Position numbers and translations under genes: made by a program
The notes under the pieces: generated by a model
Told to the model about the DNA's origin: nothing
Database searches by the model: none
The model's input: only the letters and a program-made list of their open reading frames with translations
Assembly (NCBI GenBank): GCA_965214705.1
Contig: OZ243972.1
Location: 736,001 to 800,000 of the forward strand
DNA: 64,000 nucleotides
Direction of reading: 5' to 3'
Source: Alphaproteobacteria bacterium
GTDB lineage: Bacteria > Pseudomonadota > Alphaproteobacteria > UBA828
Shown: positions 471 to 51,090 of the stretch, piece after piece
Layout: each line of letters opens with the position of its first letter
Position numbering within the stretch: the stretch's first letter is position 1

Positions 471-701
471 CGAACCGAACCCTGTGAATTGTCACTCGTT
501 CATCGTCGTAAGAGTACAGCACCCACAATTCGCGGGTCTCCGCTACTTTGTTTTGAGGGAACACGTGCACCAGATACTTCGTAGCTTCGTGATGGTATCG
601 AGGAGGTAACTGCCCAGGTCTGATTCCGCCGAGCACTCACGCGTGATGGACTGATGCCTCTGGCCTGGTGCCGCTGACGTGGAGCGGAGCGGCGGGGGAT
701 T

Positions 702-2243
702 TCAGAAGCGCAGTACCGGGATTAGCTGCATGGGATCGGGGTGCGCCAGGGTTTCGAGGACATTCCAGCGCTGTTTTCGAGCGGTGGCGATGACGGACCG
801 CAGGTTGGCGAAGTCGCAGGCACCTTGCATCGAGCGGAAGCCGCCTGAGATTTTCTGACGCAGCTTGCCCATTCGCAGATCGCGCTCCGCCTCATTGTTC
901 GAGAACGGGGTTCGCGGGTCGGTGAGGAAGCGCAGGCACCCCTCCTTGTACTTCTGGAGCCGGAGCGCGAGGTTGTGACCGATGCGGCGCTTTTGTCGTC
1001 CGCGCTTTCCGGTCTGGAGCGGCGGCATCTCTTCGTGAGCGGCGATGGCACGTTCGAGGATGCGGTCCCAGGCTCGCGAGATGCGGGCGACCAGTGATGC
1101 GGGCACGTCGCGATCATTCTTGCGGGCGAAGCGGGCGGCTCTGTTGGCACGGGAGAGCAGCTGGTGCGTGCTCGTTGCCCAGTCTTCCTTCTCGATCTCG
1201 ATCAGGGCCTGGAGCTCACGCAGGTGATGGGCGTTGCAGGCCCCGTGGCGCACGCCCTCGAGAGCGAAGTAGGTGGCATAGTCGTCATGGATGACGATGC
1301 CGTTGAGCTTCTCGTCGAAATGGCCGCGCCCGCTGGCGACGCGCAGGATGGTCAGCAACGGGGTGCACAGCACGTGGAGCCAATGGGTCCGGGCGGCGAT
1401 GCGGATGCCGGTCTCGTCGAGGTGTTTGACCGGGGCTTCGGTGCGGATGATCTCTGCGACACGATCGAGGAAGCCCTCGAAGCGCCGGGCGGTGCGCCGG
1501 CCCATGGCGGCGATGGTGGCCGTTGAGATCTTGACCGCGAAGAGATCGCTCATGACCTCGGCGACGCGCTTCTCCGGAATGAACTGAGCGTGCAGCAGGT
1601 AGGTCACCCACGCGGTGATGCGCGGCCCGTACTGGACCGGGGCGCTCACGCCGTTCGGGAAGGCGGCTGTTGTCATGGTACCGCAGGCGGCGCAGAGGCA
1701 GCGATGGCCGCGATGCTCGGTGGCCTCGAGGGGCTGCGGCTCGGGCACATCGAAGACCTGCCGGCAGACGGGGGCTCCGTGACGGTCGGCGTCCGACAGC
1801 GGCGCGCCGCAGCCCTCACAGGCGGACGGATCATGATCCACGACGTGGTCCGGGTTCTCGGTCCGCTCCAGGGTGGTTCCCTTGTGGCCCGGCTGACCGC
1901 CGCTGGGCCTGTCGGATTTGCCGCGCCGGCTCCGGGTGCGCTTCTCCTGGTCTCCGCTCTTCTTCTTCAGGCCGTCGCTGGCCGGCGGCTTGGAGCTGGT
2001 GGTGCTGTCGAGCGCGGCGCTGCGCTCAAGTTCGGCGATCCGCTCGCGCAAGCGGGCGTTCTCCCGCTCCAGCGCGTCGTTCTCCTTGACCAGCGCCGCG
2101 CTCAGGCGAAGCAGCCCCTGGCCCCATTCCCGGATGGCTTTGACGGCGGTCATCGCGAAGGATTGTGGGGTGAAAAGGTCCTGCAGGCACGCGAAAGCCT
2201 CGTCGTGAGCGGCGAGGTCCGCGTGCCAGCGCGACACTGTCAC
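702..2243 (-). CDS. tnpC: IS66 family transposase (TnpC-like)
   Basis: SSKPPASDG leucine-zipper region, CxxC..CxxC zinc finger, HLDETG, CNAHHLREL, NNEAERDLR motifs. Confidence 0.95.
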   Translation of the reverse strand: MTVSRWHADLAAHDEAFACLQDLFTPQSFAMTAVKAIREWGQGLLRLSAALVKENDALERENARLRERIAELERSAALDSTTSSKPPASDGLKKKSGDQEKRTRSRRGKSDRPSGGQPGHKGTTLERTENPDHVVDHDPSACEGCGAPLSDADRHGAPVCRQVFDVPEPQPLEATEHRGHRCLCAACGTMTTAAFPNGVSAPVQYGPRITAWVTYLLHAQFIPEKRVAEVMSDLFAVKISTATIAAMGRRTARRFEGFLDRVAEIIRTEAPVKHLDETGIRIAARTHWLHVLCTPLLTILRVASGRGHFDEKLNGIVIHDDYATYFALEGVRHGACNAHHLRELQALIEIEKEDWATSTHQLLSRANRAARFARKNDRDVPASLVARISRAWDRILERAIAAHEEMPPLQTGKRGRQKRRIGHNLALRLQKYKEGCLRFLTDPRTPFSNNEAERDLRMGKLRQKISGGFRSMQGACDFANLRSVIATARKQRWNVLETLAHPDPMQLIPVLRF

Positions 2244-2908
2244 AAACCCTCGTCAGCCTCGACGGCCATGATCGCGGCCAGCACCGCCAGGCGTTCGCCC
2301 GCCGGCATGGCCTCGTAGCGCCGGCCCCAGTTGGCCGCCTTGCGCTTGATGCGCTGGCGGTCGGTGAAGTTGCGGCCCGCGCAGCTCGCCCAGTGCACCC
2401 GGTCGGGCGCGAAGTTGAACCACACCACCTCGGTCCGCACCTGGGCCTGGGTCGTCACCTGCAGCGCCAGCCGGCGCCAGCCCGCCAGCAACTCGTCATA
2501 GAGCGCAGACGGGTGGCCCGAGACCATCACCTGGCAGGGCAGACCCTTGAGCAGTTCGAGGAGCGCGACGTGGTCGGCCTCCTCGTACTCGAAGCGGTAG
2601 CGCTGCGACGAACGCCGGGTCGCGTGCAGATAGGGCGGATCGCTGTAGACCAGCTCCGGGCCCAGGAACGGGAACGAGGCCAGAAAGGAGTGGGCGCAGC
2701 CGTGCACCAACTCCACCGGGTAGCCACAGTCGAAGGACTCAAGCGCCCGCTCGTCGCGGTCAATCCCGATCGAGCGCACGGCCGCAGGCTTGCGCTTCAT
2801 CAGCGCCCCGCCCCCCAAGTGGCTCTCGATATAGACAGAGTGCGGGGGCATCAGCGCAATCAGCGCCTGGCTCAGACCGGTCGTCGCCTTCGATCCGAAA
2901 TACCCCAC
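2240..2908 (-). CDS. Dam-like (D12-class) N6-adenine DNA methyltransferase
   Basis: YFGSK motif X, ESHLGGGA SAM-binding motif I, DPPY catalytic motif IV; stop overlaps transposase start (GTGA). Confidence 0.85.
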   Translation of the reverse strand: MGYFGSKATTGLSQALIALMPPHSVYIESHLGGGALMKRKPAAVRSIGIDRDERALESFDCGYPVELVHGCAHSFLASFPFLGPELVYSDPPYLHATRRSSQRYRFEYEEADHVALLELLKGLPCQVMVSGHPSALYDELLAGWRRLALQVTTQAQVRTEVVWFNFAPDRVHWASCAGRNFTDRQRIKRKAANWGRRYEAMPAGERLAVLAAIMAVEADEGL

Positions 2909-3210
2909 CGGCTGCTCCTCTCATGCGAGAGAGCAACCCATAGGCGAGCGCGCCTATACAGTCAAGGGGCAGATCATCGATGCGCCGACGGCCAAACGGC
3001 ACCGGCGGCGACCAACATCAGCACGCACTCAGATCTGGCGGCGGGGTACCTGGGTAGTTACTCGAGGAGTTCCTTTTTCAGGACTTCTCGCAAGACGCCA
3101 TTCTATGCCGCGCCAGTGGTCATCGAAGCGCGGCGTCTGTGCAGTCGCCTCGTCGACAAAACATTGCGCTTGCGGGTCCAGCGCAACGTCCCGATATACG
3201 GACCACTGCA

Positions 3211-3846
3211 TTATCGGGCTGCGGCGCTCTCGATTTGCTCGACAGCAGCGTTGGCCCAGTCTCTGACTTCATCCGTTATGGCTCCCTTACCACTAGCAAG
3301 AGTGGCATATAGGGGAATTTCCTCGCCCTCAGCGGCTGCTTCCCAAATCTCTTCATGGGTAAGTTCGCTGATCTCGTTTGCAGAGTGGCTGCACACAAAA
3401 TCAAGTACGATCTTGGCCCATGCCTGTTCCGCTTCCGACAAAATCCCGGAATCCAGCCGCCCGCGGAAAATGTATTTCCGCGTGTCATAATGATGCTCCG
3501 GTTCCTGGATGATAATTTTCTCGTCAGCCTCGAGCTCTGCCAACGTAGCAAGTATCGTCTTTGGAACAGGACCCTTCTTCCTCTTGACGTACGTTTCTCC
3601 GGTAATCGATACGCCATTCGCTTGGTAAGCGAGCATATCGGCAAACCAGAGTGCCTTGTTCAGCCTTATAGCTCCGAGGCGCGATGGGTTATGCCGGCAT
3701 TCGTGCACCATAAAGTGCACTAGCGCCTTGAACTTTTCCCGTGACATGGGACGCTCCCTCGGTTGGTCAGGGTCTACATATGGCACTTGACACACCAAAT
3801 GTCTAGTGTTAGGCGCCATGTCCGAACGGCGATTCGTATGCTCCAT
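3211..3846 (-). CDS. Panacea domain (DUF4065/SocA-like) antitoxin
   Basis: RLNKALWFAD...SITGETY....GPVP...THEEIW pattern; start uncertain (possibly MSREKF). Confidence 0.8.
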   Translation of the reverse strand: MEHTNRRSDMAPNTRHLVCQVPYVDPDQPRERPMSREKFKALVHFMVHECRHNPSRLGAIRLNKALWFADMLAYQANGVSITGETYVKRKKGPVPKTILATLAELEADEKIIIQEPEHHYDTRKYIFRGRLDSGILSEAEQAWAKIVLDFVCSHSANEISELTHEEIWEAAAEGEEIPLYATLASGKGAITDEVRDWANAAVEQIESAAAR

Positions 3847-45453: not shown

Positions 45454-46055
45454 GTCCGCGCTATATAACGTTTCTTCAGTCCTCGGAATAACATACCGTG
45501 AGTCCCCCCAGAAACGTTGAACACACCCTGGATGAGACTGGCTCCTGGTCCGCACTTCTTGCATTCGAAGCGCATCGATCCAGAGTCGGCGCCATTAGCG
45601 CTGCGCGGCCACGAGGGCGGAACGAGGGACAGGTGACGTGCGATGGCCATGAGGAGACGATCCATGCCCTTCGAGCGACAATCGAGTCTCACGAAGCCAC
45701 CATCGAGGCTCGAGAGGCGACCATAAGAGCCCGTGATGCCACCATTCACGACCTTCTAAGTTCCACCAGTTGGAAAGCCACCGCTCCACTTCGCTCCGTG
45801 TCCCGAACCTTCAGATGGTATCGGCGCGCACTCCGCAGAGCCCCCAGACACCTGTATCGGCAGGGCAAGGAGCAATTCTCACGCGTCACAAGTTCCATGC
45901 GTTGTAACTACCCAGGTACCCCGCCGCCAGATCTGAGTGCGTGCTGATGTTGGTCGCCGCCGGTGCCGTTTGTCCGTCGGCGCGTCGATGATCTGCCCTT
46001 GACTGTATAGGCACGCTCGCCTATGGGTTGCTCTCTCGCATGAGAGGAGCAGCCG

Positions 46056-46725
46056 GTGGGGTATTTCGGATCGAAGGCGACGACCGGTCTGAGCCAGGCG
46101 CTGATTGCGCTGATGCCCCCGCACTCTGTCTATATCGAGAGCCACTTGGGGGGGCGGGGCGCTGATGAAGCGCAAGCCTGCGGCCGTGCGCTCGATCGGG
46201 ATTGACCGCGACGAGCGGGCGCTTGAGTCCTTCGACTGTGGCTACCCGGTGGAGTTGGTGCACGGCTGCGCCCACTCCTTCCTGGCCTCGTTCCCGTTCC
46301 TGGGCCCGGAGCTGGTCTACAGCGATCCGCCCTATCTGCACGCGACCCGGCGTTCGTCGCAGCGCTACCGCTTCGAGTACGAGGAGGCCGACCACGTCGC
46401 GCTCCTCGAACTGCTCAAGGGTCTGCCCTGCCAGGTGATGGTCTCGGGCCACCCGTCTGCGCTCTATGACGAGTTGCTGGCGGGCTGGCGCCGGCTGGCG
46501 CTGCAGGTGACGACCCAGGCCCAGGTGCGGACCGAGGCGGTGTGGTTCAACTTCGCGCCCGACCGGGTGCACTGGGCGAGCTACGCGGGCCGCAACTTCA
46601 CCGACCGCCAGCGCATCAAGCGCAAGGCGGCCAACTGGGGCCGGCGCTACGAGGCCATGCCGGCGGGCGAACGCCTGGCGGTGCTGGCCGCGATCATGGC
46701 CGTCGAGGCTGACGAGGGTTTGTGA
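46056..46725 (+). pseudogene. Dam-like methyltransferase, frameshifted in a G run
   Basis: G7 at 46148-46154 versus G6 in copy 1. Confidence 0.8.
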
Positions 46726-48263
46726 CAGTGTCGCGCTGGCACGCGGACCTCGCCGCTCACGACGAGGCTTTCGCGTGCCTGCAGGACCTTTTCACCCCAC
46801 AATCCTTCGCGATGACCGCCGTCAAAGCCATCCGGGAATGGGGCCAGGGGCTGCTTCGCCTGAGCGCGGCGCTGGTCAAGGAGAACGACGCGCTGGAGCG
46901 GGAGAACGCCCGCTTGCGCGAGCGGATCGCCGAACTTGAGCGCAGCGCCGCGCTCGACAGCACCACCAGCTCCAGGCCGCCGGCCAGCGACGGCCTGAAG
47001 AAGAAGAGCGCAGACCAGGAGAAGCGCACCCGGAGCCGGCGCGGCAAATCCGACAGGCCCAGCGGCGGTCAGCCGGGCCACAAGGGAACCACCCTGGAGC
47101 GGACCGAGAACCCGGACCACGTCGTGGATCATGATCCGTCCGCCTGTGAGGGCTGCGGCGCGCCGCTGTCGGACGCCGACCGTCACGGAGCCCCCGTCTG
47201 CCGGCAGGTCTTCGATGTGCCCGAGCCGCAGCCCCTCGAGGCCACCGAGCATCGCGGCCATCGCTGCCTCTGCGCCGCCTGCGGCACCATGACAACAGCC
47301 GCCTTCCCGAACGGCGTGAGCGCCCCGGTCCAGTACGGGCCGCGCATCACCGCGTGGGTGACCTACCTGCTGCACGCTCAGTTCATTCCGGAGAAGCGCG
47401 TCGCCGAGGTCATGAGCGATCTCTTCGCGGTCAAGATCTCAACGGCCACCATCGCCGCCATGGGCAGGCGCACCGCCCGGCGCTTCGAGGGCTTCCTCGA
47501 TCGTGTCGCAGAGATCATCCGCACCGAAGCCCCGGTCAAACACCTCGACGAGACCGGCATCCGCATCGCCGCCCGGACCCATTGGCTCCACGTGCTGTGC
47601 ACCCCGTTGCTGACCATCCTGCGCGTCGCCAGCGGGCGCGGCCATTTCGACGAGAAGCTCAACGGCATCGTCATCCATGACGACTATGCCACCTACTTCG
47701 CTCTCGAGGGCGTGCGCCACGGGGCCTGCAACGCCCATCACCTGCGTGAGCTCCAGGCCCTGATCGAGATCGAGAAGGAAGACTGGGCAACGAGCATGCA
47801 CCAGCTGCTCTCCCGTGCCAACAGAGCCGCCCGCTTCGCCCGCAAGAATGATCGCGACGTGCCCGCATCGCTGGTCGCCCGCATCTCGCGAGCCTGGGAC
47901 CGCATCCTCGAACGTGCCATCGCCGCTCACGAAGAGATGCCGCCGCTCCAGACCGGAAAGCGCGGACGACAAAAGCGCCGCATCGGTCACAACCTCGCGC
48001 TCCGGCTCCAGAAGTACAAGGAGGGCTGCCTGCGCTTCCTCACCGACCCGCGAACCCCGTTCTCGAACAATGAGGCGGAGCGCGATCTGCGAATGGGCAA
48101 GCTGCGTCAGAAAATCTCAGGCGGCTTCCGCTCGATGCAAGGTGCCTGCGACTTCGCCAACCTGCGGTCCGTCATCGCCACCGCTCGAAAACAGCGCTGG
48201 AATGTCCTCGAAACCCTGGCGCACCCCGATCCCATGCAGCTAATCCCGGTACTGCGCTTCTGA
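46722..48263 (+). CDS. tnpC: IS66 family transposase
   Basis: 513 aa, near-identical to 702..2243. Confidence 0.95.
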   Translation: MTVSRWHADLAAHDEAFACLQDLFTPQSFAMTAVKAIREWGQGLLRLSAALVKENDALERENARLRERIAELERSAALDSTTSSRPPASDGLKKKSADQEKRTRSRRGKSDRPSGGQPGHKGTTLERTENPDHVVDHDPSACEGCGAPLSDADRHGAPVCRQVFDVPEPQPLEATEHRGHRCLCAACGTMTTAAFPNGVSAPVQYGPRITAWVTYLLHAQFIPEKRVAEVMSDLFAVKISTATIAAMGRRTARRFEGFLDRVAEIIRTEAPVKHLDETGIRIAARTHWLHVLCTPLLTILRVASGRGHFDEKLNGIVIHDDYATYFALEGVRHGACNAHHLRELQALIEIEKEDWATSMHQLLSRANRAARFARKNDRDVPASLVARISRAWDRILERAIAAHEEMPPLQTGKRGRQKRRIGHNLALRLQKYKEGCLRFLTDPRTPFSNNEAERDLRMGKLRQKISGGFRSMQGACDFANLRSVIATARKQRWNVLETLAHPDPMQLIPVLRF

Positions 48264-51090
48264 AATCCCCCGCCGCTCCGCTCCACGTCAGCGGCACCAG
48301 GCCAGAGGCATCAGTCCATCACGCGTGAGTGCTCGGCGGAATCAGACCTGGGCAGTTACCATGCGTTTTGCTCTTGCAGAATCACCCGCAGGAGTTCACT
48401 CGAAGCGAAGCGCCTGGCCGATTGAAATCTCGAACTCTGTTTCGGAGATTATTCGCGAAAGCAGAATACAACATGTCGAAGGAACATCCCGAAATACTCA
48501 ACGACGACCTGACAGGAAAGCCCTCAAGATAACGGTCATTGCGTGGGACTTGGCACACAATCCCTTGGGACGCGCGTACCTGCTAGCGGATGCGTTGCGA
48601 CACGAATACGACGTCGAGCTTATTGGGGCGACCTTCCCCGACTTCGGCAACGACATTTGGAAGCCGCTACGCGATTGTAAGCGCGTCAAGATCAAGCACG
48701 TACCGGGCGCCTATTTCCCAGAATATTTCAGGACCATGAAAGCGATGGTCGAACACGTTGAGGGAGACGTCCTTTACGTGTCCAAGCCGAGGTTTCCGAG
48801 TTTGGGGTTGGCTGTTCTTGCCAAGATGAAAAGAAACAGACCAGTCATTCTCGACATAGATGACCATGAGCTCAGCTTCTTCGGTGCTCGAGAGCCCCTA
48901 AGTCTAGAGGAGTTGAGAGCCGAGCGAGGCATTCTGGATGTCGACGTGCCTTTTGGCGAGGCCTGGACCCGCCACTGTGAAACGCTGATTCCGCTCGTTG
49001 ACCAAATCACCGTGTCGAATGAGACGCTCAAGGGAAGGTACGGAGGCATCGTTCTGCCCCATGTCCGTGACGAGTCGGAATTCGACCCGACCATATATCC
49101 TCGCGAGGAGATTCGGCGTGAGCTCGGCTTCGTACCGGAAGACAGAGTCATTCTGTTTGCGGGAACCCCACGCAAGCACAAGGGGCTCTCGCGGCTTATC
49201 GCCGCGCTGAGAGAGCTGGATCGACCGACGTACAAGCTCCTGGTTGTCGGTTCGCCGGCTGATGGTACCGTGACCAGACTGCTGCGGCGCGTCGACCCGA
49301 GCCGCGCAACGCTGGTTCCGGACGTACCGTACTCGGATCTACCCGGCTATCTTTGCGCCGCCGACCTCGTTCCTCTGCTTCAAGACGAGGCTGAACCTAC
49401 GTCGGCATTTCAAATGCCCGCCAAATTTACCGATGCACTCGCCATGGGCATCCCCATCGTCGCGAGCAATGTCCCGCCCTTGGTCGATGCCGCGAACGAC
49501 GGCCTTGTGGAATTGCTGGGAAACGCAACGCCGGCGCAAAAGATCAACGAAATCTTCTCCAACTACGCAATTCATAAGAAGCGAGCCACTGAAAACCGTG
49601 AGAATTTTCTCGGCAAATTCAGCTACGCAAGCAATTTGCCTAAAATAAAGCAAGTGGTGGAACGGCATGCCGACCACCCTAAGCCCGTCCCGCATGCCTT
49701 CCACGATCTCGTCGAGTATCAGGAGAGTATCTATTCCCAGACGGGAAAGCTGCGCATAACCGCTCCCAAGGTCATCATACCAAGCAAAGTCATAACAGCT
49801 CCATCCGTTGCTACCGCAGCATTGGCGCAGCGCAAGACTGAGAGGGCGCGGCTGCGCGCGCAGCGATCGTACGTCGACGACAAATTGGATGTGGTCTTTT
49901 TTTGGAAGCAAAACGACAGCGGGATTTACGGCAGGCGTCAGGACATGTTCGTCAAGTACCTGGCGCGCGATCCAAGGGTCAACCGCATCTTCCACTTCGA
50001 CGCTCCGATGAATTTCTTTCGCTCTGTGGGCCTGGCGGCCAGAGCGGATTCCATGGGGCGGTGCAGCCATTCGCGACTGGTTGGACGCCAGACGCTGAAC
50101 AGGAGGCTCGGACTCGCCAACAGGGGTAAGGTCAGATTCGACACCTTCATCCACGTCTCAAACCGTCGCGGCCCGAGGGTGCTCAAGCATATTCTTCCGG
50201 GGAAAGACGACTATCTCGAATTCCTAAGCCGCGTCATCAGACGTCATGAGATCGGGCAGCGGAGGACCGTTCTCTGGGCGTGCCCCGTCAACTTTCATTT
50301 CTTGAACATAGAGGATCATTTGCAGGCAGACCTCGTGGTCGCCGATGTCATCGACGACGAGCGAAAATGGCCGGTGAGTGAGGCATATAGAGATAAGCTG
50401 AGTCGCAATTATGAAGAGGTATTGGGGATTAGCGATCTCGTCATAACAAACTGTGAGAGTGTTTCCCAGAGCATGAGCGCCCTATCCGACAGCATCCATC
50501 TGCTGCCGAATGCCGTGGAACCCCTGGAAGAGGAGGCGAGGCACTGGCCTAAGCCGCGCGACCTCAAGCGTCTCTCGGGGCCGGTGATCGGATACGTCGG
50601 CAACTTGGATATCGCGCGCATAGACCTGGATCTGTTGAGGAGCGTGGTGAGTAAACGCCCTGGCTGGAATTTCGTCTTTATCGGCTCCATGCATAAGGGT
50701 GATGAGATCAGAGAGTTGGAAATATACGGCAATGTTCATTTCTTGGGAGTTCGAGTCTACGAGCAAGCGCTGCGCTATATCCGGCATTTCGATGTGGCCA
50801 TTATACCGCATTTAGATAACGAACTGACGAGAAGCATGAATCCCCTTAAGTTGTACGTTTATTTTTCTCTGCTGGTGCCTGTTGTGTCGACAGAGATACA
50901 GAATATCGGGGATTTCAGCGAGTTCGTTCGCCGCAAGAGTTCGTGCGCACAATCGACGAATGTCTCTGCAACGATCCACTAGAAAATGAACTGCCGCGTC
51001 TTCGAGAGTTACTAAAGGAGAATTCATGGCCTGAGCGCGTGAAGTACGTGCTTGAGTTGATCGAGCGGAAATTCGCAGTGTGCTAGCAGC

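Follow-up and report, generated by a model that had tools for sequence, protein, structure and literature searches.

An IS66-family insertion sequence (IS) of 2,456 bp, located in a 64,000-nucleotide stretch of alphaproteobacterial DNA (UBA828 lineage, assembly GCA_965214705.1, contig OZ243972.1, positions 736,001 to 800,000 of the forward strand; hereafter, the window), carries ahead of its transposase gene a gene for a 222-residue protein with the catalytic fold of the Dam DNA methyltransferases. Most likely, this Dam-fold protein acts as the on/off regulator of the element and not as a GATC methylase. Specifically, we give a probability of about 0.55 to the view that it is an element-encoded autoregulator of the transposase operon, which represses its own and the transposase's promoter and thereby exerts feedback in trans on all copies of the element. 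A first-pass annotation, made from the sequence alone, had described a self-methylating element that may regulate its own transposition. Self-regulation is indeed plausible, given that a conserved inverted repeat overlaps the gene's own promoter, whereas control through GATC sites, in the manner of Dam, finds no support.

An inverted repeat at the promoter and the plasmid protein Upf31

When the regions upstream of the gene were anchored on TTGAC, the 46 segments that were long enough yielded the consensus CTTGACa.cATAG-N10-CTAtgctg. A -35 box is separated by a 17-nt spacer from the -10 box, which reads TATGCT in most elements and TATGGG in the window, and an inverted repeat is superimposed on this layout: each position of CATAG and CTA carries ~1.4-2 bits of information, compared with 0.1-0.6 bits for those of the central N10. 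The left half-site falls within the spacer, where a promoter alone would impose no constraint. Four of the five transposase groups described below have the operator-like site, the fifth being represented without upstream sequence, and in the 64-kb window ATAG-N10-CTAT occurs only twice, at 2940 and 46007, once in each of the two copies of the element. In 10 of 10 window-type elements, the leader that follows can fold into a hairpin which includes the ribosome-binding site, at energies, computed without a shuffled control, of -16.5 to -22.6 kcal/mol. The second transposase lineage has a different leader sequence with inverted arms of its own, CTGATCC...GGATCAG; hence, it may be the structure of the leader, and not its sequence, that is conserved.

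Relatives of the Dam-fold protein are found on plasmids. A plasmid search returned 198 matching records, all below 60% identity and 134 of them conjugative, among which was upf31.0 of the IncP-1beta plasmids. Upf31 of plasmid pB8 is 44% identical to the protein of the element over the full length, the C-terminal helical domain included, with motif I, DPPY and the C-terminal helices all kept; by tblastn, 43% identity was seen in many IncP-1 records. At the sequence level, the resemblance extends to an inverted repeat that overlaps the gene's own promoter: upstream of upf31, pB8 has TTGACAGCATCG-N10-CGATGCTG, the same arrangement of TTGAC, half-site, N10 and half-site, with one base different in each half-site (CATCG for Upf31, CATAG for the element), and a plasmid homologue from Xanthomonas has AACATAG-N10-CTATGCTG.

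According to a preprint on Upf31 (10.1101/2024.02.05.579024), the 68-bp region upstream of upf31 is a promoter, the activity of which fell from 4.76 to 0.09 XylE units in the presence of full-length hybrid Upf31, which is thus an autorepressor; inverted 5'-CAGCATCG-3' repeats were proposed as the operator, and a C-terminal dimerisation domain was predicted. The same preprint reports that Upf31 of pBP136 conferred no GATC methylation, as judged from a negative restriction digest, and that, in methylation-free E. coli, Upf31 gave no base-modification signal in SMRT (single-molecule real-time) sequencing (10.1101/2024.02.05.579024). Methyl transfer by the protein of the element, as originally envisaged, is therefore in doubt: the only homologue that has been tested, at 44% identity, represses its own promoter and shows no detectable methylation. 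The two systems are not the same in all respects, inasmuch as upf31 is a plasmid backbone gene, whereas the present gene resides within an insertion sequence and drives a transposase, and the predicted KorB partner of Upf31 has no counterpart in the element. Yet another context, resembling neither the insertion sequence nor the backbones of conjugative plasmids, is seen on a Methylorubrum plasmid (L130): the start of a cysteine desulfurase gene is overlapped there by a homologue of 44% identity, and a DUF4007 gene follows.

Dam-type control through GATC was considered and rejected on three grounds, namely, the background density of the sites, the lack of their conservation and the absence of Dam's DNA-recognition domain from the protein. 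There are 18 GATC sites in the 2,456-bp element and 461 in the 64,000-bp window, that is, approximately one per 137 bp in both. The GATC near the -35 box in the left end, which had suggested such control, is present in copy 2, five bases upstream of the TTGACT at 45999-46004, but there is no enrichment, and only 4 of 10 related elements have a GATC beside the -35 box; a conserved site was found neither in the transposase promoter nor in the ends. In IS10 and IS50, adenine methylation at the transposase promoter or ends times transposition, and it is the host Dam and GATC sites that are used. The idea of adenine methylation timing transposition at these locations is common to both cases; here, in contrast, the protein is encoded by the element, GATC has no visible part and methylation is hypothetical.

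Fold of the 222-residue protein

By sequence, the protein stays below the thresholds of the Dam families. Pfam assigned no family to it, a search of the genome with PF02086 did not pick up the copies of the element, and the NCBIfam dam model scored 25.7 bits, far under its cut-off of 114.85. The profile of 54 relatives, however, matches DpnM at 1.1e-8 and E. coli Dam at 6.8e-6, with a weak match to T4 Dam (0.035); residues 12-64 of Dam align with profile positions 5-60, and residues 162-240 with positions 73-145. The Pfam D12 methyltransferase family is matched at E<=0.01 by 46 of the 54 relatives, and there are matches to the PADLOC Type II methyltransferase model (2.5e-21) and to PHROG 56, DNA methyltransferase (7e-21). 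The stretch of Dam between the aligned blocks (roughly residues 65-160), which we take to be its DNA-binding (target-recognition) domain, has no counterpart in the 222-residue protein. Throughout the 54 aligned sequences, G5, H23, DPP (90-92), H113, G178 and R184 are invariant, and the glycines of motif I, Y93 and a basic C-terminal stretch are nearly so.

The AlphaFold model (predicted local distance difference test score, 91.2; predicted template-modelling score, 0.84) consists of a seven-stranded methyltransferase core, residues 25-164, followed by long helices at 181-200 and 203-220. In structure comparison, residues 1-167 of the model superimpose on residues 8-270 of E. coli Dam with a Z score of 18.3 and a root-mean-square deviation of 2.0 Å over 147 residues; T4 Dam (Z 18.2) and DpnM (17.5) follow, whereas generic class I methyltransferases score ~13-14. 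Thus, this is a class I fold closest to Dam, in which motifs X, I, II and IV (DPPY) align with those of Dam, T4 Dam and DpnM. It differs from these three enzymes in lacking the target-recognition domain between motifs II/III and IV, in the additional C-terminal helical hairpin and in falling short of the Pfam threshold.

The element, its copies and its distribution

Copy 1 of the element (Table 1) has the GTAAC...GTTAC ends and the perfect 8-bp target-site duplications reported in the first-pass annotation and, as was also stated there, contains only two real open reading frames (ORFs), both on the minus strand, those of the DPPY protein and of the transposase, which have the four bases GTGA in common. 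Its 14-bp inverted repeats match in 13 of 14 positions, with one mismatch. The 222-aa ORF begins with GTG, with GGAG seven bases upstream. The claimed absence of tnpA, tnpB and a restriction enzyme holds as well: no tnpA/tnpB-like ORF and no nuclease was found within the 2,456 bp, which are too short to hold one.

Table 1. Features of copy 1 and of the second copy of the element (window coordinates)
Feature	Position	Strand	Basis or remark
Copy 1: target-site duplication TCGAGGAG, 8 bp, left	598..605	.	identical 8 bp at 3062-3069
Copy 1: terminal inverted repeat, transposase-distal end, GTAACTGCCCAGGT	606..619	+	the same 14 bp end the methylase-less 1,666-bp IS66 elements of this genome
Copy 1: IS66-family DDE transposase, 513 aa, GTG start within the GTGA overlap	702..2243	-	Pfam and NCBIfam matches
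Copy 1: Dam-fold, Upf31-family protein, 222 aa	2240..2908	-	motif I hlGGG 30-34, DPPY 90-93, C-terminal helical hairpin 181-220
Copy 1: 5' leader hairpin containing Shine-Dalgarno GGAG (2915-2918)	2903..2942	-	folding energies, 10 related elements
Copy 1: promoter-like site, -35 TTGACT 2960-2965, 17-nt spacer, -10 TATGGG 2937-2942	2937..2965	-	sequence
Copy 1: candidate operator, inverted repeat ATAG-N10-CTAT over spacer and -10	2940..2957	.	consensus of 46 anchored upstream segments
Copy 1: terminal inverted repeat, methylase-proximal end, GTAACTACCCAGGT on the minus strand	3048..3061	-	sequence
Copy 1: target-site duplication TCGAGGAG, 8 bp, right	3062..3069	.	sequence
Copy 2 (lineage C), inverted relative to copy 1	45904..48359	+	duplication CATGCGTT at 45896-45903 and 48360-48367
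Copy 2: methylase gene, frameshifted ORFs	46056-46205 and 46165-46725	+	ORFs of 49 aa and 186 aa
Copy 2: transposase, intact	46722-48263	+	ORF

The 513-aa transposase matches NCBIfam NF033517 (3.1e-84; 283 bits against a cut-off of 180) and Pfam DDE_Tnp_IS66 (PF03050; 1.3e-38), as well as DUF6444. As in other IS66 elements, the ends start with GTAA and the target duplication is 8 bp, perfect and distinct in 12 of 12 full copies; the place of the canonical tnpA and tnpB upstream of tnpC is, however, taken by the ORF with the methyltransferase fold. The element fits the single-transposase (ISBst12-like) IS66 subgroup and not canonical IS66. It has in common with this subgroup the NF033517/PF03050 transposase, the DUF6444 N-terminus, the GTAA ends, the 8-bp duplication and the lack of tnpA/tnpB, and it differs in the addition of an upstream gene with its own promoter and operator-like site. 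The nearest named plasmid relatives of the transposase, those of the ISGst1/ISGka4 family, are 34-36% identical.

The source genome (7.9 Mb, 3 contigs) contains 33 DNA matches to the element. Twelve of these are full-length copies of 98-100% identity, each flanked by its own perfect 8-bp duplication, which sort into four sublineages; one 5'-truncated copy and two copies of a relative with 82% DNA identity, carrying both genes, are also present. The second copy in the window does have a different target duplication, as the first-pass annotation had noted, but it had been overlooked that its methylase gene is frameshifted. This copy belongs to lineage C, which, with five of the 12 full copies, is the most numerous lineage in the genome and is marked by 13 common substitutions, a 1-bp deletion upstream and an extra G in the methylase-like gene; the latter sits in a G-run at codon 33-34 (G7 versus G6) and splits the gene in two. 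The spread of a lineage in which the methylase-like gene is broken shows that an intact gene is dispensable in cis, although the seven intact copies could supply the protein in trans to the frameshifted ones.

Several further observations concern individual copies. A composite transposon formed by the two window copies, which are inverted and ~42.8 kb apart, was rejected because each has its own matching duplication and thus represents a separate insertion. Lineage B copies (L003, L004, L005, L012) have a 21-bp in-frame insertion in the transposase, and in L012 a further insertion of 32 bp breaks the reading frame. The two copies of the 82% relative (L014 and L015; contig C1, ~1.55 Mb) are identical, inverted and less than 2 kb apart, and lie within a larger inverted duplication. 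Copy 1 interrupts a small minus-strand ORF, 60-aa fragments of which remain at 454-636 and 3029-3211 of the window. Immediately upstream of this ORF lies a gene (3211-3846) with a SocA/Panacea antitoxin domain (Pfam 1.8e-15), so that the gene broken by the insertion may be the toxin partner in a toxin-antitoxin pair.

The same genome harbors at least 11 copies (L018-L028) of methylase-less IS66 elements of ~1.6-1.7 kb. Those of the 1,666-bp type have 14-bp ends identical to those of the element and a transposase 58-59% identical to that of the window (a 496-aa ORF at L021 1456-2946, consistent with the tblastn frame), with no space for a second gene. The existence of methylase-less elements with the same ends implies that the methylase module is an add-on and not a mechanical necessity. 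The identity of the ends also raises the question of cross-mobilisation.

The linkage of the two genes, a survey of which had been proposed at the outset, was assessed in two sets of loci, namely, 80 loci from public metagenome-assembled genomes (MAGs) and 80 metagenome contigs found with a profile of more distant members. In all 80 MAG loci, an IS66 transposase lies directly downstream of the methylase-like gene, the product of which is 88-96% identical to that of the window, with the transposase mostly at 75-96% (lowest full-length match, 70%). In the metagenome set, 9 loci have no usable downstream ORF, and 62 of the 71 scannable ones have an IS66 transposase downstream (60 by NF033517, L182 by tblastn and L200 by Pfam LZ_Tnp_IS66). 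Among the remainder, three have an IS1634 transposase (L140, L142, L156) and L199 has a weak IS701 match; no transposase was recognised downstream at L147, L154, L169, L176 and L204. A partnership with IS1634 was rejected in favor of the likelier nested insertion, an ORF of 156-179 aa intervening in two of the three cases. Both ends could be located in 34 metagenome elements (2,238-2,471 bp, ends GTAACTACTCACCCC or similar), of which 6 show perfect 8-bp duplications, whereas the rest may be chimeric repeat assemblies. Among 124 extracted elements, the GTGA overlap occurs in 64, all of the window type, and most other junctions are spacers of 2-30 nt.

The MAG loci come from 14 assemblies, as counted from record titles, mostly of Alphaproteobacteria but also of Dehalococcoidia, Candidatus Binatia and Candidatus Tectimicrobiota (non-alphaproteobacterial labels include loci among L034, L046, L048, L049, L078, L088 and L090). 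Such high protein identity across MAGs of different labelled phyla suggests recent transfer between phyla. Mis-binning is unlikely for two of the loci, given that one lies on a 442-kb Dehalococcoidia contig and the other on a 6.0-Mb Binatia chromosome. Among 400 other sampled genomes from the phylum of the window, none gave a match above 48% identity, so the distribution of the element is patchy. At 71% identity or more to the protein of the window, there are more than 120 protein clusters (clustered at 90% identity). A literature search, which did not extend to ISfinder, found no paper that describes an IS66 element with a methyltransferase gene; considering the number of related clusters, named examples may well exist in that database. 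In four metatranscriptome libraries from three studies, contigs with >=85% likeness cover 24-28 of the 30 bins, a coverage that is uninformative on expression because DNA carry-over is possible and transcript starts are lacking.

The 53 non-redundant elements fall into five transposase groups with no more than 38% identity between groups, whereas the methylase-like proteins of different groups are 63-83% identical. Within the largest group (T1), the two proteins diverge about equally, with a mean identity of 79% for the methylase-like protein and 75% for the transposase and nonsynonymous divergence (dN) of 0.154-0.167 and 0.154-0.193, respectively; between groups, dN of the transposase is ~4 times higher (e.g. 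0.79 versus 0.19). The ratio of dN to synonymous divergence is 0.06-0.25 for the methylase-like gene in 17 of 17 pairs and 0.14-0.80 for the transposase; in 14 of the 17 pairs, purifying selection on the methylase-like gene is as strong as or stronger than that on the transposase. In a quick tree, the methylase-like proteins of groups T2-T4 nest within T1 with Shimodaira-Hasegawa-like approximate likelihood ratio test values of 82-90, which is suggestive only. Either the module has moved between transposase lineages or it is under unusually tight constraint; in both cases, it matters to the element.

Autoregulation and the competing explanations

The origin and action of the module can be envisaged as follows. 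A single-transposase IS66 element would have gained two parts ahead of the transposase, namely, a gene of the Upf31 family and a promoter that contains an inverted-repeat operator, the transposase being translated from the same transcript, via the GTGA stop/start overlap or after a short spacer. The protein would dimerise through its C-terminal helical hairpin and bind (C)ATAG-N10-CTAT(G); because this site covers the -35/-10 spacer and the -10 box, binding would shut off the protein's own promoter. The resulting negative feedback would cap transposase levels, acting in trans on every copy in the cell. The anatomy and mobility of the element, the linkage of the two genes, the selection on them, the fold, the homology to Upf31 and the conserved operator-like site are established by the data above, whereas DNA binding, repression and dimerisation are what we infer for the Dam-fold protein.

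Several points weigh against autoregulation. The right arm of the repeat is at the same time the -10 box, which leaves only the left arm (CATAG) to be explained by something other than promoter function; furthermore, the -10 box of the window, TATGGG, is a weak match, and an automatic sigma-70 scan of 500-3200 returned no sites, TATGGG failing the last-base rule of the scan. The Upf31 data pertain to a 44%-identical plasmid protein in E. coli, and methylation was tested there on an expression vector, such that methylation confined to the native operator could have escaped. Finally, motif I, the aspartate of motif II and DPPY are invariant or nearly so across the 54 members and under purifying selection, a conservation of catalytic motifs that is unexpected for a pure DNA-binding repressor. 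The conserved pocket may bind a flipped adenine without transfer, methylate only the operator, or methylate many sites.

The last of these options amounts to an active orphan N6-adenine methyltransferase, which would modify both host and element DNA and thereby shield the element or its carrier from restriction or reshape the host methylome; this corresponds to the view taken in the first-pass annotation, minus its GATC component. Anti-restriction genes are often found in the transfer and partition regions of conjugative plasmids, and the plasmid relatives lie among such genes (134 of 198 records conjugative; two contexts inspected). This setting, the Dam-family catalytic fold with its nearly invariant motif I and DPPY, the D12 matches of 46 of the 54 relatives and the PADLOC and PHROG 56 matches make an orphan methylase possible. 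We nevertheless consider it doubtful: the DNA-recognition domain of Dam is missing, Upf31 gave no SMRT signal in methylation-free E. coli, the frameshifted lineage has the most copies, and shielding accounts neither for the conserved operator-like site nor for the close coupling of the gene to that of the transposase. It seems unlikely, too, that the protein is repressor and enzyme at once, with methylation directed at the adenine in its own operator, in the half-site that overlaps the -10 box. If this were true, the operon would fire only briefly, on DNA hemimethylated just after replication, and the element would carry a self-contained, portable version of the Dam control of IS10, able to function where the host lacks Dam and exchanged between phyla as well as between the transposase lineages of IS66.

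Two other readings fit the data less well than either autoregulation or methylation. Given that the gene occupies the tnpA/tnpB position, is translationally coupled to the transposase and is retained in five transposase lineages, its product could be a transposition cofactor that replaces TnpA/TnpB, binding the ends or the transposase and helping to build the transpososome. This is improbable considering that the methylase-less 1,666-bp relatives with identical ends are multi-copy in the same genome, that the frameshifted lineage spread nonetheless, and that each copy has a single ATAG-N10-CTAT, located at the promoter, with none at the ends; moreover, a specific protein contact is made less likely by the lack of conservation of the transposase N-termini from one lineage to another, most tblastn matches beginning only at query residues 72-142. 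Some insertion sequences are known to carry passenger genes, and relatives at 40-55% identity are ordinary plasmid genes, so the gene might be a passenger useless to the element, acquired from a plasmid or phage and kept for the benefit of the host or by chance. Its fixed position, coupling to the transposase, purifying selection (14 of 17 pairs at or above the level of the transposase) and presence in five divergent transposase lineages render this the least probable of the alternatives.

Autoregulation by a methyltransferase-fold protein has a precedent: methyltransferases of the M.SsoII type, in restriction-modification systems, repress their own promoters. The likeness lies in a protein with a methyltransferase fold that has a second role (in the case of the present protein, presumably) as a transcription factor, exerted at an inverted repeat close to the promoter of its own gene. 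Unlike the Dam-fold protein, those of the M.SsoII type methylate cytosine, have an extra DNA-binding region at the N-terminus and belong to restriction systems, whereas the element encodes no nuclease.

IS66 is a large family, the accessory proteins of which are poorly understood. The present analysis defines a widespread subgroup of it, with at least five transposase lineages, in which the accessories are replaced by a single Dam-fold protein with a conserved operator-like site. The near-identical copies in MAGs of different labelled phyla make the element a marker of recent gene flow. The link to the plasmid regulator Upf31 gives both proteins a testable DNA target, and the element is a compact setting in which to study the conversion of a methyltransferase fold into a transcription factor, or its possible use as an epigenetic switch.

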